Shown: positions 10,309 to 28,849 of the stretch, in pieces
Position numbering within the stretch: position 1 is the stretch's first letter
Layout: every line of letters begins with the position of its first letter
From: Fibrobacteria bacterium
Lineage (GTDB): Bacteria; Fibrobacterota; Fibrobacteria; UBA11236
DNA: 64,000 bases
Assembly (NCBI GenBank): GCA_041746255.1
Contig: JBGTHM010000126.1
Location: 22,953 to 86,952 of the forward strand
Reading direction: 5' to 3'
Notes under the pieces: model-generated
The model's input: only the letters and a program-made list of their open reading frames with translations
Databases searched by the model: none
Told to the model about the DNA's origin: nothing
Translations under genes and position numbers: made by a program

Positions 10309-10875
10309 ATGAAATGCTCTGCTCAATTGATTTTTATCGTCTTACTGGTGGGAACTCGCATTTCCAGCCATGCCACCTCCATGTTCGAACTGGAGTTAAA
10401 GGAATTGGCAACTGGTTCCCAACAGGTGGTTCAGGCCAAGGTTACGGCCGTAGTACCGCAATGGGAGAATAATCAAACCGTCATTAACACTTATGTGCGG
10501 TTAAACATAATAGACGACCTGATTGGGGACGACGAAGACAATGAAATTATCGTCAAAATACCGGGAGGTCGGATAGGGACAACCGAACTCAGGGTGGAAG
10601 GAACGGCCACCTACAACGTAGGGGAAGAAAACGTTCTTTTCCTTTTTCGAGATGTGGAAAACAGGACGATTTACCAGACTTTGGGAATGTATCAGGGAAA
10701 ATACTCGGTATATGCGGATGGAAAAGGAATCCGTCGTGTCGCCAGGGATACTACCGGAACAGGAGCAGCTCTGTTCAAGCGGGCGGGAGCCGCCGATATC
10801 GCAGAAACCGGCGATCATTTAAGTTTGGAGGATTTTAAAAAGACCGTAATCCAATACATCAAGAGTGAAAAATAA
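10309..10875 (+). CDS. Exported hypothetical protein resembling N-terminal domains found with matrixins
   Basis: GGAG RBS before ATG 10309; signal peptide; PGGRIG, GEENVLFL, GMYQGKY. Confidence 0.7.
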   Translation: MKCSAQLIFIVLLVGTRISSHATSMFELELKELATGSQQVVQAKVTAVVPQWENNQTVINTYVRLNIIDDLIGDDEDNEIIVKIPGGRIGTTELRVEGTATYNVGEENVLFLFRDVENRTIYQTLGMYQGKYSVYADGKGIRRVARDTTGTGAALFKRAGAADIAETGDHLSLEDFKKTVIQYIKSEK

Positions 10876-10888
10876 CGGGAGGGTAAGA

Positions 10889-13375
10889 ATGTATACAATC
10901 TATCGGATATTCCTTCTCGTTACTTTTGCGATTAACTCCGTATGGTCTTATAAGTTTATCGGGCCGAAGTGGCCCGGCGCCAATCCGGTTGTCCAGTATT
11001 GGATCAACGAACAAGGAAGCCCCGAAGTCCTGGACGAAGTCGACCACATTGTTAAAAGCTTCAAGGTATGGGACCAGGTGCCGACCTCCACGCTGGAAAC
11101 GAAATATCTCGGAATGACCGCGGCAAACTCGTGCGCCAAAGACAATATCAATCTATTGAAATGGGCGAAGGGGCGGGATTGGACTCTAGGACAGGGAGTC
11201 ATTGCCGCAGCCTATATCTGGTACAAAAGTGACGTCATTCAGGAATTCGATATCCTGTTCAATGACCAGCATTTTTCCTGGTCTACCTCAGGGGAGGCCA
11301 ATAAGATGGATGTCGGCCATATCGCCACCCATGAAGTGGGACATGTTCTTGGATTGGACCATTCCTCGGTTTCAGGGGCCGTGATGTGGCCCACCGCCCG
11401 CCCCGGAGACCTTTCCAATAGAAAATTACATTCCGATGACAGTGCGGGACTTTCCGCCCTATATCCACGAACCGACAACAACAATCGGGCTCCCGTCATC
11501 ACCAGTAAACCGGTAACCGAAGCCGTAGCGGGCATGAAATACGCATATAGCGTCACCGCCAATGACCCGGATGGCGACCCGGTTACCTTCAAACTTGAAA
11601 AGTATCCGCTTAATATGCGCATAGATGAAAAATCCGGACAGATTACCTGGTTTCCGAAATTCCTGGATGTAGGATCACATACCGTTACGGTAGTTGCGTT
11701 GGATAATTCGAGTAAAACCTCCAAGCAAACCTTTCAGGTAGCGGTTACCAACCTTCGGGTTTATACCGAAAACAGGGAAATCCGCCTCGGAGATACATTA
11801 TTCCATGAGGTGAAAGTGTCTCCTATGGATGAATTCGGCATCTTCTCCGGCAACATCGAACTTGATTTCAACAATTCACAGATGTCGGTATTGGGAGTGG
11901 ATACCAAGGGTTCCGTGGTCGATGGCGCCTCCTTCTTCAAGAATATCACAGACCGTCAGGTAAAAATCGCCTTCGCAGGATCTGATAGTTTTATCGGTGA
12001 AGGTATTTTATTTCGCGTGAAGCTTCTAGTTCATGAGGGTTCCTGCGGTGAAGTGATCCGCATGGGAATCGGAAAAGCCCTGTTCAACGACGGTGAGCCT
12101 GCCGCTACCGTCCAAAACGGAGACATCTTCATGAGTTGCCAGGGTGGAGATGGGTGGTCAGGTGGATACACAATGGACGGTCGGGTTACCTACCTCGGTA
12201 ACGGAGAAGGCGTATCCAAAGTGAAATTGGATTTCCCTAAAATGGGAAAAACAACCACCACGCAAGATGACGGATTTTTTGCGTTTAAAAATGTTCCCCT
12301 TCTAAAGATGGATTTTTCCATAATCGCCTCGAAAGATTCCGGCGACATACGAAACGCCATTTCCGCCTATGACGCCTCATTGGTATTGCGCCATGTTGTC
12401 GGACTTCACTCTTTGAAAGATTTTGAAAACCAGAAATATGCAGCCGATGTCAATGGAAATGGAGTTGTAACCGCGTATGATGCGGCTCTGATTTTACGCC
12501 ATTTGGTGAACTTGAAAGACATTACCCACATTGGATGGTGGGTTGTGTCTCCTGATAAACGCAATTTCAATGGGATTCTCGGAGACATGCACAATATTAA
12601 TTTTGGCGCCTACCTAGTCGGGGATGTGAGCGGTAATTGGAAACAAGACCTACCTGTCCTAGCCAAACGAACAGCTGAAAACGATAACAAAGTCTTCCTA
12701 AGCGAATACCGGCAACAGGACGTTTCACTGCCCTTGGGAGCGATTGACGGATATCGATCGGTAATTTCACTGGCACAGGAAATGGAGGGTATGTATTCGG
12801 GCGAATTCGAGTTAGCCTATGATAGCGATAAATATGAATTCCTCGATGCCCGGTCGCTTCCGATGACCAAAGGCTATCTCTTGGAAAGCAATGCCGTTGG
12901 CGACAATATCCGTGTCGTTTTCGCCGGCACCGAGCCCCTTCCCGGTTCCGGCGAATTATTCGAAGTTTTGCTGGCTCCGAAGTCAAAATTGGGAACGCCA
13001 CCGCCGCTCAATTCCGATCTCGCCTATTTCAAGGTGAATGAAGGACTCTTTCAATCTGTGGGAATTATGCAACACGATTCAAAAAATGCGGCTCGGTTCG
13101 CCGGTAAACGCCAATTCCGGGTTCAACCGAGAACCGGAGGCCACCTGGAAATGGAATATTTCGCGGAAACGCCGAGCGAGGTTAGCTTTTCCTTGCTGGA
13201 CGTCAAGGGACGCATGGTAAAACGGATGTCCCAAGGGCATAAACACTCCGGCAGCCATAGGCTGACTTGGGAAATCGATAATCGTGGAAACTCCGCAAGG
13301 TCAAATCAAATCTATTTCGTAGCCATTTCCATGGGTTCCCGGTCCGAGACCGTTAAAGTGTTACTCGTGGAATAA
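10889..13375 (+). CDS. Secreted M10 (matrixin-like) metalloprotease with Ig-like, two cohesin-like, dockerin-like and C-terminal sorting-like domains
   Basis: HEVGHVLGLDHS and Met-turn AVMWP; NRAPVITS..DPDGD; DVNGNGVVTAYDAALIL; LLDVKGRMV; GGAGG RBS before ATG 10889. Confidence 0.85.
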   Translation: MYTIYRIFLLVTFAINSVWSYKFIGPKWPGANPVVQYWINEQGSPEVLDEVDHIVKSFKVWDQVPTSTLETKYLGMTAANSCAKDNINLLKWAKGRDWTLGQGVIAAAYIWYKSDVIQEFDILFNDQHFSWSTSGEANKMDVGHIATHEVGHVLGLDHSSVSGAVMWPTARPGDLSNRKLHSDDSAGLSALYPRTDNNNRAPVITSKPVTEAVAGMKYAYSVTANDPDGDPVTFKLEKYPLNMRIDEKSGQITWFPKFLDVGSHTVTVVALDNSSKTSKQTFQVAVTNLRVYTENREIRLGDTLFHEVKVSPMDEFGIFSGNIELDFNNSQMSVLGVDTKGSVVDGASFFKNITDRQVKIAFAGSDSFIGEGILFRVKLLVHEGSCGEVIRMGIGKALFNDGEPAATVQNGDIFMSCQGGDGWSGGYTMDGRVTYLGNGEGVSKVKLDFPKMGKTTTTQDDGFFAFKNVPLLKMDFSIIASKDSGDIRNAISAYDASLVLRHVVGLHSLKDFENQKYAADVNGNGVVTAYDAALILRHLVNLKDITHIGWWVVSPDKRNFNGILGDMHNINFGAYLVGDVSGNWKQDLPVLAKRTAENDNKVFLSEYRQQDVSLPLGAIDGYRSVISLAQEMEGMYSGEFELAYDSDKYEFLDARSLPMTKGYLLESNAVGDNIRVVFAGTEPLPGSGELFEVLLAPKSKLGTPPPLNSDLAYFKVNEGLFQSVGIMQHDSKNAARFAGKRQFRVQPRTGGHLEMEYFAETPSEVSFSLLDVKGRMVKRMSQGHKHSGSHRLTWEIDNRGNSARSNQIYFVAISMGSRSETVKVLLVE

Positions 13376-16849: not shown

Positions 16850-17698
16850 ATGACTCGCCCCAACCGAAAAACATTTTTCCCATACCTGCGAACCATTCCC
16901 GGGATTATCCTGTGCATTGCCTTTGTTAACAGTGCGACAAAGCCCACATGCGAATATACGAAAGCGATTCGGCAAGCCGAATTGGGGAATCACCAAGCCA
17001 GCCTGAAAATATTGGAACGGTGCCCCGCCGACGATTCCGTATCCCATTTCTGGAAAGGTCTAAACTACCATGCACTCTATCAACCGGATCCCTCTTTACT
17101 GCATTTAAAAAAAGCTTATGGCCAAGGCATACGCAATGATACCTTGCTGATTAAATTGGCCGAGGTATTCCTCTGGAAGAAGAACTTCCGCGAGGCCTCA
17201 CGTTTGACGGAACAGGTTATCGACAAGCGCCACCCGGAATTTCTCAAGGTCAAGGCGCGTCATCACGAAATCCTGGGGGAATTCGCGGAGGCGATAAAAC
17301 TTTATGACTTGGCCATAGCCAAGGAAAAACTTCCTTATGAAACCATGGCCCGTAAAGCAACCGTCCTTTCCTGGGCCAAGGATTACGACGGAGCCATCGC
17401 CCTTTTCACCGAAATCATCTCCGCGAAAAAGGTTCTTCCACCATTAAGGAAGAACTGCTTGATACGACGAGCGGAGGTGGTATCCTGGAAAAAAGATTTC
17501 GTAGCCGCACTGGCCGATTTGGACGCGGTATTGAAAATGGATAAACAAAACAGCGAAGCCATTTTACTCAAGGGGAAAATCCTCGAGTGGCAAGGAGAAT
17601 ACCTTTCCGCTAAAAAATTGTATGCGGAAATCCTGAGTTTCGACGCCGAAAATGACCAGGCGAAGATGCGGTTGGAAAAATTGGAATGGGTCAAATAA
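16850..17698 (+). CDS. Exported TPR protein (paralog of 25405..26256)
   Basis: Signal-like N-terminus; TPR helix pairs with recurring Trp. Confidence 0.8.
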   Translation: MTRPNRKTFFPYLRTIPGIILCIAFVNSATKPTCEYTKAIRQAELGNHQASLKILERCPADDSVSHFWKGLNYHALYQPDPSLLHLKKAYGQGIRNDTLLIKLAEVFLWKKNFREASRLTEQVIDKRHPEFLKVKARHHEILGEFAEAIKLYDLAIAKEKLPYETMARKATVLSWAKDYDGAIALFTEIISAKKVLPPLRKNCLIRRAEVVSWKKDFVAALADLDAVLKMDKQNSEAILLKGKILEWQGEYLSAKKLYAEILSFDAENDQAKMRLEKLEWVK

Positions 17699-17711
17699 AA
17701 AGTAGGAGTTT

Positions 17712-18875
17712 ATGAAATTATCTATATGGATTATAGTCGGGGCCATATCGGGAATGGGATTCCCTTCCATCACGTATTCACAAGAGACACTTACTGCCGT
17801 AACCACCAAGACCTATGCGCTCTTGGACGATAAGAAGGCGGTCTATCTCGACTACCCATCGTCGAAGGCGACCCTCTATCAAATCACTTTGGCGGACAAG
17901 AGCAAAAAAGTTCTCGTTCCCGAAGGTACGGGGCCAAACTCTACCTTGTATTTCATGTATTTCGGAGTATCGGGAGACCATCTGGCGTATATACCCTTCT
18001 CCACGCAGCCGAAGCCGACCTACCCCTTAAACTATGTCAACCTGGCTACCGGCGCCAAAAAAAAATTGACCGCAGATGAAGGATGGAAGGAAACCGTGGA
18101 GGTGGGTGGCAACATCGCAGTCTGGATAGATTTTCGCCATAAGACGGCAGGCGACAAGAATAGCGAAATCTACCTGCACAATCTTTCAACCGGTGCGGAA
18201 AAGCGAATTACGACAAGTGTCAGTTATCAGACAAAGGCCGTTACCGATGGAAAGCATGTCGCCTGGGTCGACTATGCTAACGGAAATAAAGGCATTGTGG
18301 TTCTCCATGATATCGCCACCGGTAAGGATTTTCCGTTGGGCGATGGAACTTCACATCAAGATAACCCCCGGGTTTCAGGCGATTTTGTCGTATGGGAAGA
18401 TTACAGGAATGCGACTTCCGATACCACAAATGCGGATATTTACGCCTATAATATCAAAACCAAAGAAACCTTGGGAATTTGTGTAAAACCCGGGTTCCAA
18501 GGTACGCCCTATATCAGTGGAAATGCTGTGGTCTGGGAAGATCACCGTAACGCAGGAAATACGCCTGGAAATGCGGATATTTATGCCTATGATTTGGTGG
18601 ATGGAAAGGAATATCAGGTTACCCAGGGTCTCGGGTTTGAAGGATCGCCGGTCGTCTATGGCAATAAAGTGGTCTGGCTGGGTATTGAAGGTAGCGTGAT
18701 GAGCCTATATCTCGGATCGGTCTCATTCGGAAATACTTCGGTAAAACAGACTCGGCCTGATTTTTTCCAGAGCGGAAAAAATTCCGGGTCTGAGGTTTAT
18801 CGGTTGGATGGAAGGGCAGTAACAGGTCCCATGCAAAAATTCCATCCAGCCTATTTCTCGCCCTGGGTAAAATAG
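17712..18875 (+). CDS. Secreted beta-propeller repeat protein
   Basis: Repeats of (I/V)SG..VVWEDxRN...ADIYAY; signal peptide; tail YRLDGR. Confidence 0.75.
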   Translation: MKLSIWIIVGAISGMGFPSITYSQETLTAVTTKTYALLDDKKAVYLDYPSSKATLYQITLADKSKKVLVPEGTGPNSTLYFMYFGVSGDHLAYIPFSTQPKPTYPLNYVNLATGAKKKLTADEGWKETVEVGGNIAVWIDFRHKTAGDKNSEIYLHNLSTGAEKRITTSVSYQTKAVTDGKHVAWVDYANGNKGIVVLHDIATGKDFPLGDGTSHQDNPRVSGDFVVWEDYRNATSDTTNADIYAYNIKTKETLGICVKPGFQGTPYISGNAVVWEDHRNAGNTPGNADIYAYDLVDGKEYQVTQGLGFEGSPVVYGNKVVWLGIEGSVMSLYLGSVSFGNTSVKQTRPDFFQSGKNSGSEVYRLDGRAVTGPMQKFHPAYFSPWVK

Positions 18876-18879
18876 CAGC

Positions 18880-19998
18880 ATGCCATTCAGGCTTTTACCT
18901 CCCCTTTTGGGCCTAATCTGCCTGGTAGAAGGGGCGAATATTCGCTTGGGGGCGGATTCGCAATGGGACAGCGAAGAATTGCTGTGGGTGAACCGTGGCT
19001 CCGTCGAGGCGAACCATTTCTCTGCGCCGTTCGGATCCGTTTCCGTCTCGGGCCGATATACCCATCACGGTATACTTGAAAATGCCTTCGGGCTCACACC
19101 CTTCAATGACAAATTTTACGGCCTGCGCTCCCATTATATCTTGGACCTGGGGACATACCGGCTGAAAACCGGGGTCGGATGGAATGATTTGGATAAACGG
19201 GATGACTTTTACACCCATGCCGGGTTAACCGCCCATTGGCCGATTTCGATTGGAACCGGCAGTTCCATCCGTTCCAGTCTTTCCTATACGGGTGAGGTAA
19301 ATCGGGCCAATCCCCTTCTCTCCATACTTTCCATGCAAAGCCGCGCAACTGGATTGGAAGTGGTGTTCCAAACGGGCCCTTGGGTAGTGGAAACGGCAGT
19401 CAGCCAAACTTCATTTTCGGCCGCAGATTCGCAGGCTCTGAATGAAATACTAGGCACAACCCGTTCCTTCAACCATATTCCCGAGAACCGGATTTGGAGG
19501 GGACATATTTACTTCTACCGCCCTGTGTGGGATTTCCTATATGTGGGAGCCTATGCGAATTTTGCCGATAGCCGCCACGATTTTTATCAGGCTACCCTCA
19601 CGCCGACCGCAAACACCGGCAGGTATATGTACTTCCCCTACGAAACACCGGTGGAATCCTTCGCACTGGGAGGTGTCCTTTCCGTATCCGTGAATTTAGA
19701 CGACTTTTTCATTCCGCTCGGCACTCTGAATTCCCGGCTAACCATTCCCTTCTATTCCCGACGTCAACAATTCTGGGAAGTGATCTCCCCTCCCTTCTAT
19801 AGCGGCAGCGGGTACTACGCTTTCGAGGGCAGCGAACCCATGCTCAGCGGCGTAGCTTGGAAAAAGGAGTTAATATCACATGTTACTCTCGCAATTGATT
19901 ACTCCTTTTATCTCAAACCCTATTACGCATACGGTATTTTCCGCCAAGAAAGTTATCGCCTGCATCAAGTAGAACTGTCCACTACTTATTCCTTTTGA
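18880..19998 (+). CDS. Putative outer-membrane beta-barrel protein
   Basis: Signal peptide, amphipathic aromatic-rich strands, C-terminal ELSTTYSF. Confidence 0.6.
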   Translation: MPFRLLPPLLGLICLVEGANIRLGADSQWDSEELLWVNRGSVEANHFSAPFGSVSVSGRYTHHGILENAFGLTPFNDKFYGLRSHYILDLGTYRLKTGVGWNDLDKRDDFYTHAGLTAHWPISIGTGSSIRSSLSYTGEVNRANPLLSILSMQSRATGLEVVFQTGPWVVETAVSQTSFSAADSQALNEILGTTRSFNHIPENRIWRGHIYFYRPVWDFLYVGAYANFADSRHDFYQATLTPTANTGRYMYFPYETPVESFALGGVLSVSVNLDDFFIPLGTLNSRLTIPFYSRRQQFWEVISPPFYSGSGYYAFEGSEPMLSGVAWKKELISHVTLAIDYSFYLKPYYAYGIFRQESYRLHQVELSTTYSF

Positions 19999-20018
19999 GA
20001 AAGTATTAGATACGGGTC

Positions 20019-21467
20019 ATGCTTTTCAACTCCCTCGAATTCGCCTACTTCTTCCCCTTAGTGGTCCTGTTTTTTTTCGGGATACCCCACCGCTTCCGCT
20101 GGATGCTGCTGCTGGCAGCCAGCTATTACTTCTATATGTGCTGGAAGCCGGAATATGCCTTATTGCTGATGCTATCGACAGGTATTTCCTATGGTACCGG
20201 CATCCTGATGGGGCGTACCGAGGTGAAAGCGCGAAGGAAGGCGTACCTCATTACCAGCCTTGTAGGAAACCTGGGTATTCTTTTTTGGTTCAAATATGCC
20301 GACTTCGTAAACGAGTCCTTCCGTGCAACTTTTCAACACTTCAATATTTTCTACGGGGTTCCGGTATTTCACATCATATTACCCGTAGGTATCTCTTTTT
20401 TCGTTTTCCAATCCCTCAGCTATTCTTTCGATGTTTACCGTGGCCAGCGGGAATCTGAAAAGCACCTGGGGATTTTTGCCCTGTACGTTGCCTTTTTTCC
20501 GCAACTCGTGGCTGGGCCCATAGAAAGGTCCACTCGTTTACTTCCACAATTCTTCCAAAAACAAAACTTCGACTACCAACGCGTAACCGATGGCCTGAAG
20601 CTGATGCTATGGGGGCTTTTCAAAAAGGTCGTAATTGCCGATCGCCTGGCGGTGGTGGTGGACCATGTTTACAGCAACCCTGCCGGTCAAAGCGGATCGG
20701 CTCTCCTGATAGCCACATATTTCTTTGCCTTCCAGATATACTGCGATTTTTCAGGTTATTCCGATATGGCCATAGGCGGCGCCAAAATAATGGGTTTTGA
20801 TTTGATGAAAAATTTCAACCGTCCTTATGCCTCCCTGTCGGTTGCGGAGTTTTGGAGGCGATGGCATATATCGCTGTCGACTTGGTTCAAAGACTACCTG
20901 TACTTTCCGCTCGGCGGCAATCGCGTGGCCAAATCACGATGGTATGCGAATGTATTCGCGGTGTTCCTGGTAAGCGGCCTTTGGCATGGAGCCAATTGGA
21001 CCTATGTGATTTGGGGCGCGTTGCACGGCTTCTATCTCGTTTTTGCTTTGGCCAGTGAAAACATCCGGGCAAAGGCCGCTTCCCTACTCAACATGGAGAA
21101 ATTTCCCACCTTCCACAAAACCATCCGAATTTTCATCACCTTCCACCTCGTCCTGTTGGCCTGGGTGTTCTTTCGTGCCGATTCCCTATCTGACGCCATC
21201 TATATACTCACGCATATATTCGCGGATTTTTCTCAACCATTAGGCTCATTGGACCTGGGCATGTCCTCCCAAGGACTAATTCTTTCCCTTATGGTCATCC
21301 TTTTCATGGAGGCCGTGCATTTAGTGCAGGGGCGTCAGGGGAGCGTGATTTCGGCTTTATCCCGGAAACCGGTGGTGATTCGATGGGCCGTGTACCTATT
21401 TCTGACCTTATCCGTTCTGAACCTGAGAGTGGAGTATCAAGCTCCTTTCATTTATTTCCAGTTTTAA
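20019..21467 (+). CDS. algI: MBOAT O-acyltransferase (AlgI-like)
   Basis: MLFNS, LPVGISFF, FFPQLVAGPIER, QIYCDFSGYSD, FWRRWHISLS, GLWHGA, FIYFQF. Confidence 0.92.
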   Translation: MLFNSLEFAYFFPLVVLFFFGIPHRFRWMLLLAASYYFYMCWKPEYALLLMLSTGISYGTGILMGRTEVKARRKAYLITSLVGNLGILFWFKYADFVNESFRATFQHFNIFYGVPVFHIILPVGISFFVFQSLSYSFDVYRGQRESEKHLGIFALYVAFFPQLVAGPIERSTRLLPQFFQKQNFDYQRVTDGLKLMLWGLFKKVVIADRLAVVVDHVYSNPAGQSGSALLIATYFFAFQIYCDFSGYSDMAIGGAKIMGFDLMKNFNRPYASLSVAEFWRRWHISLSTWFKDYLYFPLGGNRVAKSRWYANVFAVFLVSGLWHGANWTYVIWGALHGFYLVFALASENIRAKAASLLNMEKFPTFHKTIRIFITFHLVLLAWVFFRADSLSDAIYILTHIFADFSQPLGSLDLGMSSQGLILSLMVILFMEAVHLVQGRQGSVISALSRKPVVIRWAVYLFLTLSVLNLRVEYQAPFIYFQF

Positions 21468-21473
21468 AGAGTT

Positions 21474-22511
21474 ATGAAATATTTTCTGGTAAAAAGCATA
21501 CTCTTCCTGGGCTTGGTACTGACCGGTCAAATACTTTTATCCTTGGAATATGGAGTGAAGCCCTTCCGGGTCGGCATTCCTGACGCACAAGGCTATACTC
21601 CGGATTCGCTCATTCTGGCCTTCCAGCAATTTTTCCAGCCCCACCCCACTCTCGGATTCACCTGGAAAGAAAACCTGGGTGCTGATCGCAATATCGATTT
21701 GCGTTGGGCCGATCAGGAAGAAGGCGCCGTGGTAACGGATAGGCAAGGGTTCATCAATTCGCCCTACGCCATCGAAGCCCGCGCAGAGGGGAAACCGATC
21801 CATATCATCGGGCTCGGATCCTCGTTCATGCAGGGGGCCGCCGCCATATTACACGATTTCTTCTGGGCCAAGGGGTCGTTCTATTACAATATGGCCACGC
21901 CTCGCCATACCCTGCCCCAATTCAATATCGTGCTCCGCGATTATGCCTTGGTGGAAAAGCCGGAGTGGATAGTCTACGACTTGAACGAAGCCAGTTTCAG
22001 TTTGATTGGTGACTATGAAAGCTGGTCGGAATCCGGTTTGGAATGGTTCACTTACCATTCGGGAACCTGGAGTGGGCCTCCCATTGAAACGAGCTTCGCT
22101 GCCAGGGTTCTGGAGAAACACCCTGCATTAAACGGGTTGGCTCAATCCATGCGGAGAAAAGTCGGATTTACCCCGACAATCGAAACCTTGAGCGATAAGG
22201 AAGCCGTTGATAAGGCCTATGCCTACATCTCCTCCGCCCATGCCTTGGCGCAAAAGGAAGGGATTAAATTCTTCGTTCTACTCATCCCCAGTAAAGACGT
22301 GGCGATTTACGGTAAATCCGAAAAATCGGCTTTATTGAATGCCACCCTCCCTCGCTTGCAAAATGCGGGAATTCCCGTGTTGGACTTACGGATTCCCTTT
22401 GCCACGGAAAACGATCCGCGCGCCTTGTATTATAAAATCGACGGTCATTGGAACTCCTACGGAATCTATAAAGCCGGCATGGCCATGGCCGATTTCATGG
22501 CCGAAAAATGA
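21474..22511 (+). CDS. SGNH/AlgJ-AlgX-like periplasmic O-acyltransferase
   Basis: N-terminal TM, GSSF block I, DGHWN; directly follows the MBOAT. Confidence 0.75.
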   Translation: MKYFLVKSILFLGLVLTGQILLSLEYGVKPFRVGIPDAQGYTPDSLILAFQQFFQPHPTLGFTWKENLGADRNIDLRWADQEEGAVVTDRQGFINSPYAIEARAEGKPIHIIGLGSSFMQGAAAILHDFFWAKGSFYYNMATPRHTLPQFNIVLRDYALVEKPEWIVYDLNEASFSLIGDYESWSESGLEWFTYHSGTWSGPPIETSFAARVLEKHPALNGLAQSMRRKVGFTPTIETLSDKEAVDKAYAYISSAHALAQKEGIKFFVLLIPSKDVAIYGKSEKSALLNATLPRLQNAGIPVLDLRIPFATENDPRALYYKIDGHWNSYGIYKAGMAMADFMAEK

Positions 22512-22576
22512 ACTGTTTCGGACTTCAACGAATATGATATACTTGCACCATGTACGAATAATAGAAAGGGACGAAA

Positions 22577-23386
22577 ATGGACGATTTATCCAAATGTCAA
22601 GCTGTGATACTTTGCGGGGGACAAGGCACCCGAATCCGCTCTGTAAGCGAGGATAAACCCAAGCCGCTTATCGATGTGGGTGGTAAGCCCATTCTTTGGC
22701 ACATTATGAAAATTTATTCCTTTTACGGAGTGCGGAAGTTCATCTTGTGTCTAGGTCACAAAGGCGATGCCATCATCGATTTTTTCGAGAACTACCATGC
22801 CTATAACCATGACTTTTCCATGAGCATCGGCAATAAGGATAAGAAATCATTCCATTACCCGGAAAAGTACAAGGACGGCGCCGACGTCAATGAATGGGAA
22901 ATCACCTTCGCATTAACCGGCGAAGAAACGCAAACCGGTGGTCGAATCCGGCGCATCGAACCGTATGTCAAGAACGACACGTTTTTCTGTACTTACGGTG
23001 ATGGCGTGTGTGATTCCGACTTGCGCCAGCTCCATGCATTCCACCTGGCCAAGGGCAAGATTGCAACTCTGACGGGAGTGCATTTGCCAACCACCTTCGG
23101 CATCGTGGAAGCCGATGATAAAGGGGACATATCCTCTTTCCGGGAAAAACCGGTGATGTCAGGACTTATCAACGGCGGGTTTTTCGCCTTCAACAAAGGT
23201 CTTTTCGATTACCTGGACGGAGACGATACCATTCTCGAAGGCAAGCCCTTCAAGAAACTGGTACGCGACCAACAAATCGGAATGTTCCGCCATGAAGGCT
23301 TTTGGCATTGCATGGATACTTACAAGGATTATCAGAACCTAAACCAGCTTTGGAAGGAAAATAAGGCCCCATGGAAAATCTGGTAG
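22577..23386 (+). CDS. rfbF: Glucose-1-phosphate cytidylyltransferase
   Basis: LCGGQGTR, KPKPL, QTGGRI, TYGDG, INGGFF, GFWHCMDT. Confidence 0.92.
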   Translation: MDDLSKCQAVILCGGQGTRIRSVSEDKPKPLIDVGGKPILWHIMKIYSFYGVRKFILCLGHKGDAIIDFFENYHAYNHDFSMSIGNKDKKSFHYPEKYKDGADVNEWEITFALTGEETQTGGRIRRIEPYVKNDTFFCTYGDGVCDSDLRQLHAFHLAKGKIATLTGVHLPTTFGIVEADDKGDISSFREKPVMSGLINGGFFAFNKGLFDYLDGDDTILEGKPFKKLVRDQQIGMFRHEGFWHCMDTYKDYQNLNQLWKENKAPWKIW

Positions 23387-23406
23387 GTCGCAAGCAGGAG
23401 TTCAAC

Positions 23407-24510
23407 ATGGAAAAACTATTTTCAGGCGTCTATAAAGGAAAGACCGTGATGGTAACCGGCCATACCGGTTTCAAAGGCTCTTGGCTAAGCATGTGGCTTT
23501 GTCGCATGGGCGCCAAGGTGGTGGGATTCTCCCTCGGGCCACCCACCGAACCCAGCCACCTTCCCTTGCTTAAGCTGGACATGGTTTCCTTAAACGGGGA
23601 TGTGAGGGATTTCTCAGCGGTGCAAAAGGCCATGCAAGCGCATAATCCCGAAATTGTCTTTCATCTGGCCGCCCAGCCTATTGTGCGCCTCTCCTACCAA
23701 CAACCCCTGGAAACCTACCATACCAACGTAATGGGAACCGCCAATGTGCTGGAAGCTTGCCGCGGCCAGGACTCGGTAAAGGCGATTGTATGTATCACCT
23801 CCGATAAGGTATACGACAACCAGGAATGGGCTTGGGGGTATCGGGAGAATGACCGATTGGGAGGATTCGATCCCTATAGCGCCTCCAAGGCTTGCGCCGA
23901 ATTGGTCATTGCCAGCTACCGTAATGCCTTCATGAATCTGAAAAATTATGGAAAAACCCATAATAAGCTCATCGCCTCGGTCCGTGCCGGCAATGTAATC
24001 GGCGGGGGTGATTGGGCTCCCGACAGGCTCATTCCCGATGCCGTACGCGCTGCCAGCCGTAAGGAAACCGTGGTCATACGCAATCCTTCGGCTACGCGCC
24101 CCTGGCAACACGTGCTCGAATGCCTTTCGGGTTATCTCGTCGTCGGCGAAAAGTTACTGAAGGGAGAATCCGCCATAGCCCGCGAATGGAATTTCGGTCC
24201 CTTGGAAGGCGGAATTTACAGCGTTGGTCATGTCGTCAAGGAATTGGGAGAATGCTGGTCGGATATTAAGCATGTGGTGGAATTGGATCCCAATAATCCC
24301 CATGAAGCTTTTTCCCTTACGCTGGATTCGTCATTTGCCACCATCAAGCTGGGATGGAAACCGGCTTGGCCTAACAGCCTCACTTTCTTGCGCACCATCG
24401 ATTGGTATCGCGAATATTACACGTCCGGAAAAGTTACCAGCCAAGCCAACCTTGAGGATTATGTGGCGTCCGCCCAGGAAGGTAAGATTCCATGGTCCAA
24501 AGTATCCTGA
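23407..24510 (+). CDS. rfbG: CDP-glucose 4,6-dehydratase
   Basis: TGHTGFKGSW, HLAAQPIV, TSDKVY, DPYSASK, RAGNVIGGGDW, RPWQHVLE; GGAG RBS before ATG 23407. Confidence 0.95.
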   Translation: MEKLFSGVYKGKTVMVTGHTGFKGSWLSMWLCRMGAKVVGFSLGPPTEPSHLPLLKLDMVSLNGDVRDFSAVQKAMQAHNPEIVFHLAAQPIVRLSYQQPLETYHTNVMGTANVLEACRGQDSVKAIVCITSDKVYDNQEWAWGYRENDRLGGFDPYSASKACAELVIASYRNAFMNLKNYGKTHNKLIASVRAGNVIGGGDWAPDRLIPDAVRAASRKETVVIRNPSATRPWQHVLECLSGYLVVGEKLLKGESAIAREWNFGPLEGGIYSVGHVVKELGECWSDIKHVVELDPNNPHEAFSLTLDSSFATIKLGWKPAWPNSLTFLRTIDWYREYYTSGKVTSQANLEDYVASAQEGKIPWSKVS

Positions 24511-25415
24511 TCACCGGAGCCAACGGTTTCGTCGGTGGGCATTTGGCCCGGGCTCTGGCCTCCAGTGGCACCCGATCCCTCCTATTGACGGGAAGGCAGG
24601 AAACCTACTCCCACGGAACCTTGCCCCCGGGATGTCAATACCTACAGGCCGATTTGGAAAACCCTTCCGAGGCGATGACAAGATCACGCTTCGATATCAT
24701 CATTCATCTGGCGGCGGCGCTCAGTACCCAGGACTCCTCAACCGCGCGTAGGGCGCTGATGGATGCCAACGTATCGTGCACGCTTTCCATGCTCGAATTG
24801 GCCCGGGAGCACGGAGCTTTTTTCGTTTTCCCCTCTTCCGGTTTGCTCTATGGCGACCAACCCGGTCCGCATCATGAGGATCTGCCTTTACTGCCCTTGA
24901 ATTTTTACACGTTTTCCAAGTTGATGGCGGAGCAGCTGATCGAACATTTTCACCGATATCATGCCGTAAAGGCTTTGGTCTTACGCGCTTCGCTCATTTA
25001 CGGTCCCGGCCAGGGTGGTGCGATGTTCATTCCTTCCATCGTCAAAGCCCTGGTCGACGGCGAAGAGTTTCCCATGACGGCCGGTCAACAAAAACGGGAT
25101 TTCATCTATATCGACGATCTCATAGCTGCCCTCGATTCGGCAATCTCCCAGCAATTGACCGGCACCTTCAACTTGGGGGGAGGAGTCGCTCCCACTTTAG
25201 CGGAAGTGGCGGAAATGGCGGGTCAAATCACCGGCAATTCCTCCAAACTCCGCATGGGAGCCATACCCTACCGTAAAGTCGAGTCGTGGGAATATTTTCT
25301 GCAAATCGGAAAATTACAAAAAGCACTGGGCTGGTCTCCGCGAGTGGATTTAAAAACGGGTTTGGAAAAAGTAGTCCAGTACGAAAAGGACAAAAGGCGG
25401 CGGCTTGGAAAATAG
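24492..25415 (+). CDS. Extended SDR nucleotide-sugar reductase/epimerase
   Basis: GANGFVG, HLAA, YTFSK, YGPGQ, RDFIYIDD. Confidence 0.85.
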   Translation: MVQSILITGANGFVGGHLARALASSGTRSLLLTGRQETYSHGTLPPGCQYLQADLENPSEAMTRSRFDIIIHLAAALSTQDSSTARRALMDANVSCTLSMLELAREHGAFFVFPSSGLLYGDQPGPHHEDLPLLPLNFYTFSKLMAEQLIEHFHRYHAVKALVLRASLIYGPGQGGAMFIPSIVKALVDGEEFPMTAGQQKRDFIYIDDLIAALDSAISQQLTGTFNLGGGVAPTLAEVAEMAGQITGNSSKLRMGAIPYRKVESWEYFLQIGKLQKALGWSPRVDLKTGLEKVVQYEKDKRRRLGK

Positions 25416-26256
25416 AGATTCTCTTCGAAAAGCCGTTATCCGGGCGATTACCGGCGTCCTAGTTCCTTTAGGAATCGCTTATGCTGGTACTACAGTCCCG
25501 TCCCTCGCGTGCGATTCCGTGCACGCGCTGGAGAGAATCAGGGCGGAAGAATACCCCCAGGCCTTGAAGGAATTGCCCAATTGCCAGACTTCGAATAATT
25601 ACTCCAAGTGGGTAGGACTTGCTTATCATGGTCTGCAAATCGCCGATTCCACCGTGCATTATTTGAGTTTGGCCCGGAAAAATAAACCCGTAGACGATAC
25701 CCTGAAATTATGCCTTGCCGAGGGGCTTTTCTGGCAGAAGAAAATTCGCGAAGGGTCCCGCCTTCTGGATGAGGTCAAGAATAAGCAAAGCCTCGCCTAT
25801 TTGAGGGTAGCTGCTACGCAATTGGAAATGCGTAATAAGTTCGGTCAAGCCATCAAAGTGCATGATCGCATTCTCGCTCAGGAACCAACCGCATCTGCTT
25901 CCATCTTCAAAAAAGCCATGCTGCTTTCTTGGATGAAGCGTCTGGACGAGTCTATACAGATCTATACAGGACTCATCGATTCGGAGGATGTGCCGGCTTC
26001 CATGAAAGTGAATAGCCGCATCCATCGGGCGGAAGTCATTGCCTGGAAAGGTGATTTTGTCCGTGCCCTCGCCGAACTGGATGAAGTGCTTAAGCTGGAC
26101 GCGAATAATATTCCAGCTCGGCTACAAAAGGGTGTAATTCACGAATGGCGCGGTGAGTTCAAAGAAGCCAAAAATATTTACCGGGACATCCTCCTGATTG
26201 AGCCGGAAAACCCGTCCGGCAAGGCTAAACTGGAAACGCTGTTATGGGTCAGGTAG
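25405..26256 (+). CDS. Exported TPR protein (paralog of 16850..17698)
   Basis: Collinear with the first TPR protein, e.g. RAEVIAWKGDF vs RAEVVSWKKDF. Confidence 0.8.
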   Translation: MENRDSLRKAVIRAITGVLVPLGIAYAGTTVPSLACDSVHALERIRAEEYPQALKELPNCQTSNNYSKWVGLAYHGLQIADSTVHYLSLARKNKPVDDTLKLCLAEGLFWQKKIREGSRLLDEVKNKQSLAYLRVAATQLEMRNKFGQAIKVHDRILAQEPTASASIFKKAMLLSWMKRLDESIQIYTGLIDSEDVPASMKVNSRIHRAEVIAWKGDFVRALAELDEVLKLDANNIPARLQKGVIHEWRGEFKEAKNIYRDILLIEPENPSGKAKLETLLWVR

Positions 26257-27785
26257 GTTTTTTCACCGGTACCAAAACCCTCAAGGTCAGTACCGCCGAT
26301 AAAATTATTTTTCTAATCCTAATTACCCTGGGAATACAGGCCGCGTTGTATTTCGCCGATTATTGGTTTCTCGGTGACCACCGGAAAAACCTCATACTCT
26401 TCCCCATCCTGAGCTACGCCATTTTCCGTGGTGTTTTCCGCAGCATCGCAAGTTGGTTCATATTCCTATTCGCCTCCATACCCAGTGAGCGGAAATCCAC
26501 AAGCAGCCGGACGGTAGATGTTCTCATGACAGCCATGCCGGGGGAGCCGCTGGAGATGTTCGCCACCACCTTACAAGCCATTTCTGAAATGCGACATCCG
26601 CATACCACTTATCTGCTGGACGGCGGAGATAGCCCTGAACTCAAGGACTTGTGCCATAAATTCGGAGCGCAACACGTCAATTGTGTCGGTATCGGTGGCG
26701 CCAAAGCAGGCAAGGTGAATCACTGTTTACGGAATTTCGCCAAAAGTGAAATCGTGCTGGTGCTCGATCCGGACCACATTCCCAAACCCGACTTCATTGA
26801 CAGGGTGCTTCCGCAATTCGAAGATGAAAAAGTGGGTTTCGTCCAAGTCGTACAGAGCTATTACAACATCCGGGAAAATTTCGTCGCGAGGGGAGCGGCG
26901 GAACAAACCTACGGATTCTACGGGCCCTTGATGATGGGTCTCAACGGTTTGGGCATACCCGTAGCCATAGGCGCCAATTGCACCTTCCGCAGGGCGGCGC
27001 TCGACAGCATCGGCGGTCACGCCGAATCGTTGGCCGAGGACGTCAACACCTCGCTTCGTCTGCATGCCCAGGGATGGAAAAGCGTCTACCTACCTTTTCG
27101 CGCCTCTTACGGATTGGTTCCCGCCGATTTGAAATCCTTCTACAGCCAACAATTGAAATGGGCGGCTGGGATGTTCCGGTTGTTCTTCGGCGAATATTTC
27201 AAGGTTTTCCCACGCTTGAACCTACAGGCCAAATTGAATTATTTATTTTCCGGCACCTTCTACCTGCACGGGTTAACATATTTTCTCACCATGGTTTTGC
27301 CCATAGTCTTTTTATTCGGACAAATCTACGCGGTGGAAATGAAATTCAGCGAGTTCCTCTATCACGCCCTGCCCTTTCTCTTGGTTGCGACCTCCATCAT
27401 TTATTTCGTGCAAAGGTGGTATTCAGACGAAGGGGAAAAAGGCTTTCCTTGGCGTTCCATGCTATTGGAGCGCGGAACCTGGCACATCTATTTTCTGGCT
27501 TTGATTTATACCCTCATAGGGAAAAAGGTATTGTATTTGCCCACTCCCAAAAAGGCGGGGAAGCAGGGCGGGCTCATTCTGGCCTTGCCCCATCTGGCGG
27601 TTATTCTTCTTTCCGGAGCCGCCATTGTATTCGCCCTGAACACTTACCACCGCATCGATGATGGCACCCGGCTGATGGTATTCTTCGCAAGCTTGAATAT
27701 CGTGACGCTCTTGCCCACGGTGTTTATCTGTCTTCAGGATTATCTCCCCCGAGCCACCAAAAGCGGAAACGGCGGGGTATCATGA
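26244..27785 (+). CDS. Processive GT2 cellulose-synthase-like glycosyltransferase
   Basis: LLDGG, AKAGKVN, LDPDH (DxD), AED, QQLKW; multiple TM helices; no evident PilZ domain. Confidence 0.9.
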   Translation: MGQVGFFTGTKTLKVSTADKIIFLILITLGIQAALYFADYWFLGDHRKNLILFPILSYAIFRGVFRSIASWFIFLFASIPSERKSTSSRTVDVLMTAMPGEPLEMFATTLQAISEMRHPHTTYLLDGGDSPELKDLCHKFGAQHVNCVGIGGAKAGKVNHCLRNFAKSEIVLVLDPDHIPKPDFIDRVLPQFEDEKVGFVQVVQSYYNIRENFVARGAAEQTYGFYGPLMMGLNGLGIPVAIGANCTFRRAALDSIGGHAESLAEDVNTSLRLHAQGWKSVYLPFRASYGLVPADLKSFYSQQLKWAAGMFRLFFGEYFKVFPRLNLQAKLNYLFSGTFYLHGLTYFLTMVLPIVFLFGQIYAVEMKFSEFLYHALPFLLVATSIIYFVQRWYSDEGEKGFPWRSMLLERGTWHIYFLALIYTLIGKKVLYLPTPKKAGKQGGLILALPHLAVILLSGAAIVFALNTYHRIDDGTRLMVFFASLNIVTLLPTVFICLQDYLPRATKSGNGGVS

Positions 27786-28849
27786 AAACTTTCCGTTACC
27801 TCCTACTGGGTTTGGCCTATGCCGTCGTATTGGGTCTATTGTATATCCATGTCGTTCCCCGCATAGAAGCCCGCGCCAAACATTTGACCTTCAATTATTT
27901 GATCAAAAACCTGGCGCATGACAAAAACGCCTTACTGAAGAACCAGTCCTTCCACTTGGGAATTTATCGTCCGGAACTGCCCTATCATTTCGACAAGGTG
28001 TTTGAAGTGGAAGATAGTTTGGGCGTCTCCCTTTCCATCATTTCCTATTACCAGGCCTGGGGAGAAGGTCCCGAGCATGAGCTGAACCGGGAGATTTTGG
28101 AAAACATCCATCGCGGCGGTTATACGCCGATGATTACCTGGGAGCCCTGGGTTTCCGCATTCCCACAATACCGTGGAATCGTGCCGGATTCCAGCTTGAC
28201 ATTCATCTCCCAGGGAGAATTCGACGACTACATACGAAGGTGGGCCCGCGAGGCGACCCGATACGGAAAGCCGATGCTGGTGCGCTACGCCCATGAATTT
28301 TCCAATCATTGGTACGGTTGGAGCAGTACCCGCGGAAACGACAGCGCCGCATTCATCGATGCCTGGAGGCATGTGCATGACATCTTCCAGGAGGAAGGGG
28401 CGCGAAACGTGGCTTTCGTCTGGAATCCCTTTTTACCGCAAGATACGGCGTATTATCCCGGAGCGGAATACGTCGATTGGGTCACCTTGGATATTTTCAA
28501 CTTTGGACCCATAGTTGAGGATGGTTATTGGCTGGACTTTTTCACCTTGGCCCGGACTTTGTATAACCCCATGCGTCAATTCGACAAACCCATACTAATC
28601 GCCGAAACAGGAAGCGTTCCAGCGGGTGGAAATAAAAATCATTGGTATCGGGACATGTTTCACTCACTGGCACAAGGGGACTTTCCCCTGGTAAAAGGCT
28701 TGGTGCTTTTTGACACCCCCCTGGCCAAGGCTCCCAACGGAATGGATGTCGACCTGTCCATGACCTCCGACGATGAGGTCTATGCGGCCATCAAGGAGCA
28801 TCCTTCCATGGAAAAGTTAGGGCTTAGACCCGTCAAGCGACGAGACTGA
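27782..28849 (+). CDS. Membrane-anchored glycoside hydrolase family 26
   Basis: TWEPW, RYAHEFS..WYGW (acid/base), YYPGAEYVDW, ILIAETG (nucleophile); ATGA overlap with the GT2. Confidence 0.88.
   Translation: MKTFRYLLLGLAYAVVLGLLYIHVVPRIEARAKHLTFNYLIKNLAHDKNALLKNQSFHLGIYRPELPYHFDKVFEVEDSLGVSLSIISYYQAWGEGPEHELNREILENIHRGGYTPMITWEPWVSAFPQYRGIVPDSSLTFISQGEFDDYIRRWAREATRYGKPMLVRYAHEFSNHWYGWSSTRGNDSAAFIDAWRHVHDIFQEEGARNVAFVWNPFLPQDTAYYPGAEYVDWVTLDIFNFGPIVEDGYWLDFFTLARTLYNPMRQFDKPILIAETGSVPAGGNKNHWYRDMFHSLAQGDFPLVKGLVLFDTPLAKAPNGMDVDLSMTSDDEVYAAIKEHPSMEKLGLRPVKRRD

Follow-up and report, generated by a model that had tools for sequence, protein, structure and literature searches.

We describe here a gene cluster carried by a 64,000-nucleotide stretch of DNA from a Fibrobacteria bacterium (assembly GCA_041746255.1, contig JBGTHM010000126.1, positions 22,953 to 86,952 of the forward strand; hereafter the window), in which a cellulose-synthase-like glycosyltransferase of family 2 (GT2) stands next to genes predicted to make a cytidine diphosphate (CDP) sugar. 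The cluster is made of 11 genes, all on the plus strand, and extends from window position 16850 to 28849 (about 12 kb), between a divergent sensor kinase on one side and a convergent pyrC on the other. In order, the genes encode a tetratricopeptide repeat protein (TPR1), a beta-propeller protein, a predicted 372-aa beta-barrel, an MBOAT acyltransferase, an SGNH/AlgX-type protein, RfbF, RfbG, a short-chain dehydrogenase/reductase (SDR), a second tetratricopeptide repeat protein (TPR2), the GT2 and a glycoside hydrolase of family 26 (GH26). The genes named in a preliminary description of this DNA lie where it had placed them and on the same strand; the extent that it gave to the system, 22577..27785, is too narrow, and the BcsC-like export barrel belongs to the part that it left outside. 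The GC content of the cluster is like that of its flanks (0.49-0.53), and scans of the window for promoters and terminators gave no excess over shuffled sequences (12 vs 13.3 and 19 vs 17.2). As a whole, the cluster looks like a conserved form of synthase-dependent exopolysaccharide secretion that is apparently undescribed and carries its own predicted supply of a CDP-6-deoxyhexose.

The first two CDP-sugar genes are assigned by family. RfbF (22577..23386), a predicted glucose-1-phosphate cytidylyltransferase, scores 283.9 bits with TIGR02623, against a cut-off of 300.25 and 89.6 bits for the next family, and its best match in the PDB is the glucose-1-phosphate cytidylyltransferase 1tzf, over the full length (E 1e-68; next family 6e-20). 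RfbG (23371..24510), a CDP-glucose 4,6-dehydratase, reaches 473.8 bits with TIGR02622 (cut-off 278.45) and is the only protein of the genome above that cut-off; its motifs [ST]-D-K and YxxxK are intact in 37/37 orthologues. RfbF and RfbG are 43% and 50% identical, respectively, to their Salmonella counterparts. These genes had been thought to be chained by overlaps down to the GH26, and this is true from rfbG onward (rfbG/SDR 19 nt, SDR/TPR2 11 nt, TPR2/GT2 13 nt, GT2/GH26 4 nt). An overlap of rfbF with rfbG is not required, since the probable start of rfbG is at 23407, 20 nt past the rfbF stop and preceded by an AGGAG site. A second RfbF-like gene of the genome (G000:C67:63349-64206; L124:13370-14206) sits on a long branch, scores 217 bits with TIGR02623 and lies near galE and a GT4 gene, without rfbG.

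The extended SDR (24492..25415) is the predicted CDP-4-keto-6-deoxyglucose C4 reductase. It conserves S115, Y139 and K143, lacks the D-E/K pair of dehydratases and is the genome's best match to Salmonella RfbJ (E 3e-24, next 1e-7) and RfbS (4e-16). A C-terminal PYRxxE-type motif, common to the SDRs of RfbH-containing clusters, is found in 35/35 orthologues. In the SDR tree, RfbJ, RfbS and the proteins of loci L135 and L139 form one clade (support 1.0) without the SDRs linked to the GT2, and identity is 24-27%; the SDR falls outside the RfbJ/RfbS clade and would at most work like these enzymes. Searches against the PDB, the Atlas and plasmids returned generic epimerase or dehydratase names only. 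The role of C4 reductase is assigned because the keto product of RfbG needs a reductase and no other candidate recurs in the loci.

As the preliminary description had it, the window holds neither DdhC nor DdhD, and no DdhC/RfbH was found in the genome, 100% complete by markers, either: none of its five full-length DegT-family proteins exceeds 180 bits with the DdhC profile (cut-off 423), with which three control proteins from relatives reach 655-722 bits. The best match to DdhD in the genome is 25% identical (E 1e-7). A 3,6-dideoxyhexose route was consequently rejected on the lack of RfbH/DdhC. A route to an L-sugar via a 3,5-epimerase is not favoured, as the genome has a single PF00908 match, located on a different contig, and the loci show no recurring one. 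Sequence comparison failed to discriminate between quinovose and fucose, as RfbJ, RfbS and the paratose synthase of L139 (assigned by position, as it adjoins a tyvelose epimerase) are mixed in the tree; PMC7725333 gives the same limit.

The GT2 (26244..27785, 513 aa) is of the processive type. Its structure was modelled from 48 sequences with a mean predicted local distance difference test score (pLDDT) of 92.6, and the best Foldseek match is BcsA (4p00, template modelling score, TM, 0.76). The motifs D126, D175-P-D177, E265-D266, Q302-x-x-K-W306 and a gating loop P433-T-P-K436 are in place; the DDG motif of BcsA is not intact and reads D126-G127-G128. The protein ends after its last membrane helix, has no match to PilZ, and with 145 bits against a cut-off of 699 is not a member of the BcsA family TIGR03030. 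BcsB was not found among the recurring neighbours of the cluster. The genome encodes a second cellulose-synthase-like GT2 (G000:C85:8237-9874; L130:6237-7781), 26% identical, which adjoins an unannotated 445-aa gene and cysG. Another synthase of the phylum is a GH8-GT2-PilZ fusion of about 1050 aa (L017:8111-11281 in G034, where a long TPR protein comes next; similar in L018 of G042 and L008 of G056).

The remaining genes of the cluster resemble export and modification machinery. TPR1 (16850..17698), with an N-terminal hydrophobic segment, and TPR2 (25405..26256) both match Pfam TPR_19, are paralogues (38% identical) and are predicted periplasmic scaffolds, with a role for TPR2 like that of the BcsC TPRs or AlgK; a second TPR copy was seen only in the window and in one other genome (G009). 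Across the clade TPR2 lies directly 5' of the GT2, with one small gene intervening in some loci. In one sub-clade a protein of about 105 aa, with one membrane helix and a conserved aromatic-rich domain without Pfam match, is encoded between TPR and GT2 (L037:6079-6402, L033:2540-2845 and 13 others); it was not found in the window and is a candidate synthase partner. The barrel (18880..19998) is a predicted outer-membrane protein and the likely export pore: its model (pLDDT 91.2) is nearly all beta, and its top three Foldseek matches are BcsC structures (9b8a/6tzk/9b8h, TM 0.59-0.60). As barrels resemble one another, the match makes a promising lead but does not prove orthology. The beta-propeller protein (17712..18875; TIGR04275, 113 bits, cut-off 85) is probably secreted, and an Atlas search with it gave leads that were all below 0.9. 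The MBOAT protein (20019..21467; PF03062), AlgI/WssH-like, and the SGNH/AlgX-type O-acetyltransferase (21474..22511; PF16822, 34.5 bits, above cut-off), AlgJ/WssI-like, make up an optional module. No Pfam family of flippases, Wzy polymerases or second glycosyltransferases was detected among the 47 open reading frames of the window that were scanned, several of which have no match at all, in agreement with the preliminary description. Elsewhere in the window (10865-13375), a single chain of 836 aa combines matrixin peptidase, Ig, cohesin-like, dockerin and FlgD-type domains.

The GH26 (27782..28849; PF02156) has an N-terminal helix, is predicted to be membrane-anchored and keeps its catalytic residues E172 and E275. 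It is closer to CelH/Lic26A (E 1e-25) than to mannanases (3e-9) or xylanases (2e-4), and from this comparison we class it as a putative lichenase-like enzyme of the CtLic26A type, Lic26A being described as a GH26 beta-1,3/1,4-glucanase (PMC10470212). A mannan reading is not favoured, the mannanase matches being far weaker than that of Lic26A, and a xylan reading of the sister clades introduced below, which would have had UDP-xylose (UDP, uridine diphosphate) genes nearby, was rejected as no such genes recurred. The suggestion that a 6-deoxy backbone explains the presence of a dedicated GH26 is unsupported as stated, because sister clades, whose loci lack rfbFG, carry the same GH26 family (13/13 loci). 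Five GH26 positions do differ between the linked clade and its sisters.

The association of these genes was followed in a survey of 296 genomes of the phylum (a tally that includes G021); as the genomes are kin, the co-occurrence counts carry no P value. Orthologues of the GT2 (50-89% identity) occur in 30/296 genomes, spread over 11 families and 22 of 70 genera. In each of the 25 other genomes whose contig is long enough, rfbF, rfbG and the SDR gene lie on the same strand directly upstream of the GT2, and in the remaining four (G001, G091, G137 and G139) the region ends at a contig edge. A scan of metagenomes (42 of 64 parts) gave 451 relatives, of which the best 80 were added as loci. From a total of 123 loci, 12 duplicates or short cuts and five distant GH8-GT2-PilZ loci were removed and the window was added, giving 107 rows, and the GT2 tree built on them separates a clade of 63 (support 0.97) from 44 sisters. 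After dereplication at 90%, all three CDP genes are present in 30 of the 32 clade loci (the window among them) that extend 4 kb or more upstream, the other two (L036 and L062) being contig cuts; none of the 18 sister GT2-GH26 neighbourhoods of that extent has any of them. The co-occurrence check proposed earlier is hence answered strongly in the positive, the rfbF-rfbG-SDR trio going with this GT2 clade and not with its sisters. Similarly, RfbG exceeds its cut-off in 84/296 genomes, that is in 29 of the 30 GT2 carriers vs 55 of the 266 others, and 28 of the 31 genomes with an SDR orthologue carry the GT2. As for the other three, the cluster is cut just before the GT2 in G134, G038 has an O-antigen-type SDR-rfbF-rfbG triad and G135 looks eroded.

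In their trees, the RfbG and SDR proteins linked to the GT2 each group separately from the O-antigen-type copies (clade support 0.96 and 0.90, with L070/L076 as exceptions), and their distances follow those of the GT2 (Spearman 0.52-0.61). In L070/L076, rfbF and rfbG are of the non-linked type, which may be an old divergence since the GT2 of these loci branches early. In L065, rfbF is of the O-antigen type (71% to Salmonella RfbF, branch support 98/98) and occupies the usual position, the nearest loci having the linked type; we read this in-place swap as a replacement under selection for CDP-glucose supply. The barrel family, into which four neighbour clusters merged, and the GH26 are found in all 28 clade loci that reach 4 kb or more to both sides; among the same 28, the beta-propeller is present in 22 and the MBOAT in five, every time with the SGNH gene adjoining. 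The MBOAT lies between the SDR and the GT2 in L033, L035, L039 and L062. Other glycosyltransferases, lipid-carrier transferases and flippases are not among the recurring neighbours. The GT2s of two loci are 72-77% identical to Polyangia-named proteins, so that the cluster probably occurs outside Fibrobacterota too. Plasmid matches of the GT2 were all below 31% identity, and no relatives were found in viral contigs. One record with a 90% identical GT2 is titled Bifidobacteriales (L010); the other close homologues all bear Fibrobacterota names and the title is likely a mislabel.

The donor site of the GT2 differs from that of its sisters at the base. G127 corresponds to the second Asp of the DDG motif, as the sisters align gap-free with the DD of E. 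coli BcsA and the clade aligns gap-free with the sisters. This position is Gly in 62/62 scorable clade rows and in 120/120 top homologues, and Asp or Glu in 44/44 sister rows; among the best 150 cluster representatives it is acidic in 138, Gly in five, another residue in four and a gap in three. Positions A244, E265 and D266, which face the donor sugar, do not separate the clade from the sisters. In poplar CesA8, Asp294 of the DDG motif is described as lying at hydrogen-bond distance from the uracil ring nitrogen (PMC9934533, preprint). We infer that Asp294 is the second Asp, because the 29 residues between it and Glu265 match the spacing of E151 and D180 in BcsA; a table in PMC10237404 credits the first Asp, instead, with coordination of UDP-glucose. 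In cytosine this ring nitrogen bears no hydrogen, so that the loss of the acid would fit a switch from UDP to CDP in this enzyme. RfbV, a GT2 using CDP-sugars, also lacks the second Asp and has Asn.

Several features together make the cluster almost certainly a synthase-dependent export system: a GT2 channel enzyme, TPR proteins with a predicted barrel, a linked glycoside hydrolase, and no flippase or Wzy match among the scanned reading frames of the window. The CDP-sugar very probably ends up in the polymer of this cluster. That the GT2 itself uses some CDP-sugar is likely as judged from genomic context and residues, a case that is strong but indirect. We cautiously favour a more specific proposal, that the GT2 would polymerise a CDP-6-deoxyhexose directly into a secreted beta-linked 6-deoxy-glycan. 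In this scheme, where gene content, order, scores and residue states are observed, the two folds predicted and all enzyme activities inferred, RfbF would make CDP-glucose and RfbG CDP-4-keto-6-deoxyglucose, as their family scores suggest, and the SDR would reduce C4 to give CDP-D-quinovose or CDP-D-fucose. The GT2 would then elongate and translocate the chain without a PilZ switch and, by analogy with Bcs, Wss and Alg, the TPR proteins would lead it to the barrel, the GH26 would trim or clear chains in the role of BcsZ, and MBOAT/SGNH would O-acetylate the polymer in some lineages. We lean modestly to quinovose over fucose, for the single reason that gluco-configured sugars would suit both the BcsA fold of the synthase and the Lic26A type of the hydrolase. 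Chances seem about even that the synthase switched from UDP-glucose to CDP-6-deoxyhexose and secretes poly-quinovose (a natural '6-deoxy-cellulose') or a beta-D-fucan through the BcsC-like pore, the position of the base-binding Asp bearing a one-residue mark of this change of donor.

Several observations weigh against direct polymerisation of the CDP-6-deoxyhexose or its details. Compared with reference enzymes, the SDR scores nearly as well with GalE as with RfbJ (mean 75 vs 79 bits), and in most orthologues strand 2 is followed by an acidic residue, as would equally suit an NAD-dependent epimerase; with this and its place outside the RfbJ/RfbS clade, C4 reduction is mostly a matter of pathway logic. 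RfbJ outscores RfbS in 35/37 SDR orthologues, a result that if anything points to fucose rather than quinovose. Loss of the second Asp is not specific to cytosine, as the dTDP-rhamnose transferase RfbN has Ser there, and the Orphan synthases of pseudomonads carry Asn (PMC10237404). In CESA6, the changes D395N and D396N are reported not to slow the enzyme (PMC10291031). The change from Asp to Gly is one among about ten clade-specific positions, and it maps to the same single branch as the gain of rfbFG, so that the two count as one event. Two of the five Gly-bearing representatives (P0299 and P0321) group with the sisters in a quick tree, which flags their composition. Finally, G135 (94% complete) keeps the linked-type rfbF-rfbG-SDR with a 128-aa MBOAT stub, GT2 and GH26 being not found, and G089 and G090 retain a lone linked-type rfbG; these three loci (L131, L133 and L134, respectively) are apparent cluster remnants.

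Among the alternatives, the one that survives best is that the GT2 takes the CDP-glucose of RfbF as main donor, the 6-deoxy sugar serving as co-monomer, cap or chain-length control. RfbF would feed CDP-glucose into the same pool, the GH26 is nearest to a beta-glucanase, and the change in the donor site touches the base and not the sugar, the sugar-facing residues not separating the clades. However, practically all loci retain RfbG and the SDR, a poorer fit to a minor role, and RfbG would drain CDP-glucose; we hold this alternative to be unlikely. Slightly less likely still is that the GT2 makes a beta-glucan from UDP-glucose, as is presumed for the sisters, and that an unlinked transferase or an unrecognised activity attaches the CDP-6-deoxyhexose as a side chain. 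The characterised relatives are described as using UDP-glucose, namely BcsA, Streptomyces CslA (PMC11022532) and RiGT2 (PMC10374906), the second Asp is dispensable in CESA6, and the genome has other glycosyltransferases, one of them a weak match to RfbV. On the contrary, the loci have no recurring second transferase, lipid-carrier transferase or flippase; as MBOAT/SGNH, barrel and propeller do join the cluster, an essential transferase missing from it across 11 families would be odd, and the fixed Gly would be left unexplained. Lastly, it is very improbable that the CDP genes serve lipopolysaccharide or another surface glycan made elsewhere and sit in the cluster incidentally: rfbFG do usually serve O-antigens, the triad exists without the GT2 in G038 and its genes survive alone in G135, but gene order and linkage persist through 11 families and in the loci whose GT2 is 72-77% identical to Polyangia-named proteins, the linked copies form their own clades, G061 additionally has a separate O-antigen-type rfbFG cluster and L065 shows an in-place replacement of rfbF.

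Processive GT2 synthases in the literature that we examined use UDP-sugars. Alginate and mannan synthases use GDP-sugars (GDP, guanosine diphosphate), and the O:54 antigen of Salmonella is of the synthase type. Full-text searches, from which subscription papers were mostly absent, returned no report of this cluster, nor of a processive synthase with a CDP-sugar as donor. If direct polymerisation of the CDP-6-deoxyhexose is correct, a synthase using a CDP-deoxysugar would widen the donor range of the cellulose synthase fold and add a new donor class for processive GT2s; the product would be a new biopolymer and the GH26 would gain a new substrate. Such a 6-deoxy beta-glycan has no C6 hydroxyl, which helps to bond cellulose chains, and should give a more hydrophobic material. 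All parts lying together within about 12 kb, a few purified enzymes would suffice to test the proposal.

The CDP-sugar part of the cluster has its closest parallels in O-antigen and capsule pathways. It shares with the RfbF-G-H-J/S pathway of Salmonella an RfbF and an RfbG at the identities given above and an SDR of the wider RfbJ/RfbS group, whereas the genome lacks RfbH/DdhC and the cluster a flippase and Wzy. RfbV is likewise a GT2 using CDP-sugars, but it transfers single side sugars and does not belong to the membrane-channel synthases. In Campylobacter jejuni HS:41, a cytidylyltransferase, a 4,6-dehydratase and a C4 reductase lead to a CDP-6-deoxyhexose without DdhC/DdhD, HS41.21/20/18 being described as a three-enzyme route to CDP-D-fucose; there, a 3,5-epimerase and a mutase come next and the sugar enters the capsule repeat (PMC12369002). 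The cluster of the window, in contrast, has no epimerase or mutase, and its sole transferase is a processive-type synthase; HS41.18 is likened to the SDR by role, not by sequence.

The export part resembles Bcs and its acetylated variant Wss, with a BcsA-fold synthase (TM 0.76), a BcsC-like barrel, a TPR scaffold and a periplasmic-type hydrolase, and the optional MBOAT and SGNH pair parallels WssH/WssI (PMC8892547). Unlike Bcs, it lacks PilZ, BcsB was not found, and TPR and barrel are separate proteins; it has a GH26 instead of a GH8, D-G-G for DDG, QxxKW for QxxRW and dedicated CDP-sugar genes. Streptomyces CslA is presumably akin in sequence to the GT2 clade. CslA-GlxA likewise pairs a BcsA-related synthase with a membrane-anchored partner in place of BcsB, but is described with UDP-glucose as donor, a partial PilZ motif and no outer-membrane pore (PMC11022532).

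The nearest systems are the sister loci, for which no characterisation was found in the literature. They are of two types, split with a fused TPR-barrel or with fused GT2-GH26 proteins of about 1250 aa. Sister loci such as L079, L082, L092, L098, L103, L112 and L114 have no PilZ and often lie near a GGDEF-EAL protein (11 loci) and a carboxypeptidase-regulatory-repeat protein, which hints at cyclic di-GMP control without PilZ. The sisters resemble the cluster in a GT2 that is 40-47% identical and has the TxxPGEP and QQxKW motifs, in a GH26 of the same family and, weakly, in their barrel; they differ by Asp or Glu at the second DDG position and by the absence of nucleotide-sugar genes nearby (0/18). 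Being so close and with no CDP genes in these neighbourhoods, they form with the clade a natural pair for finding the determinants of donor choice.

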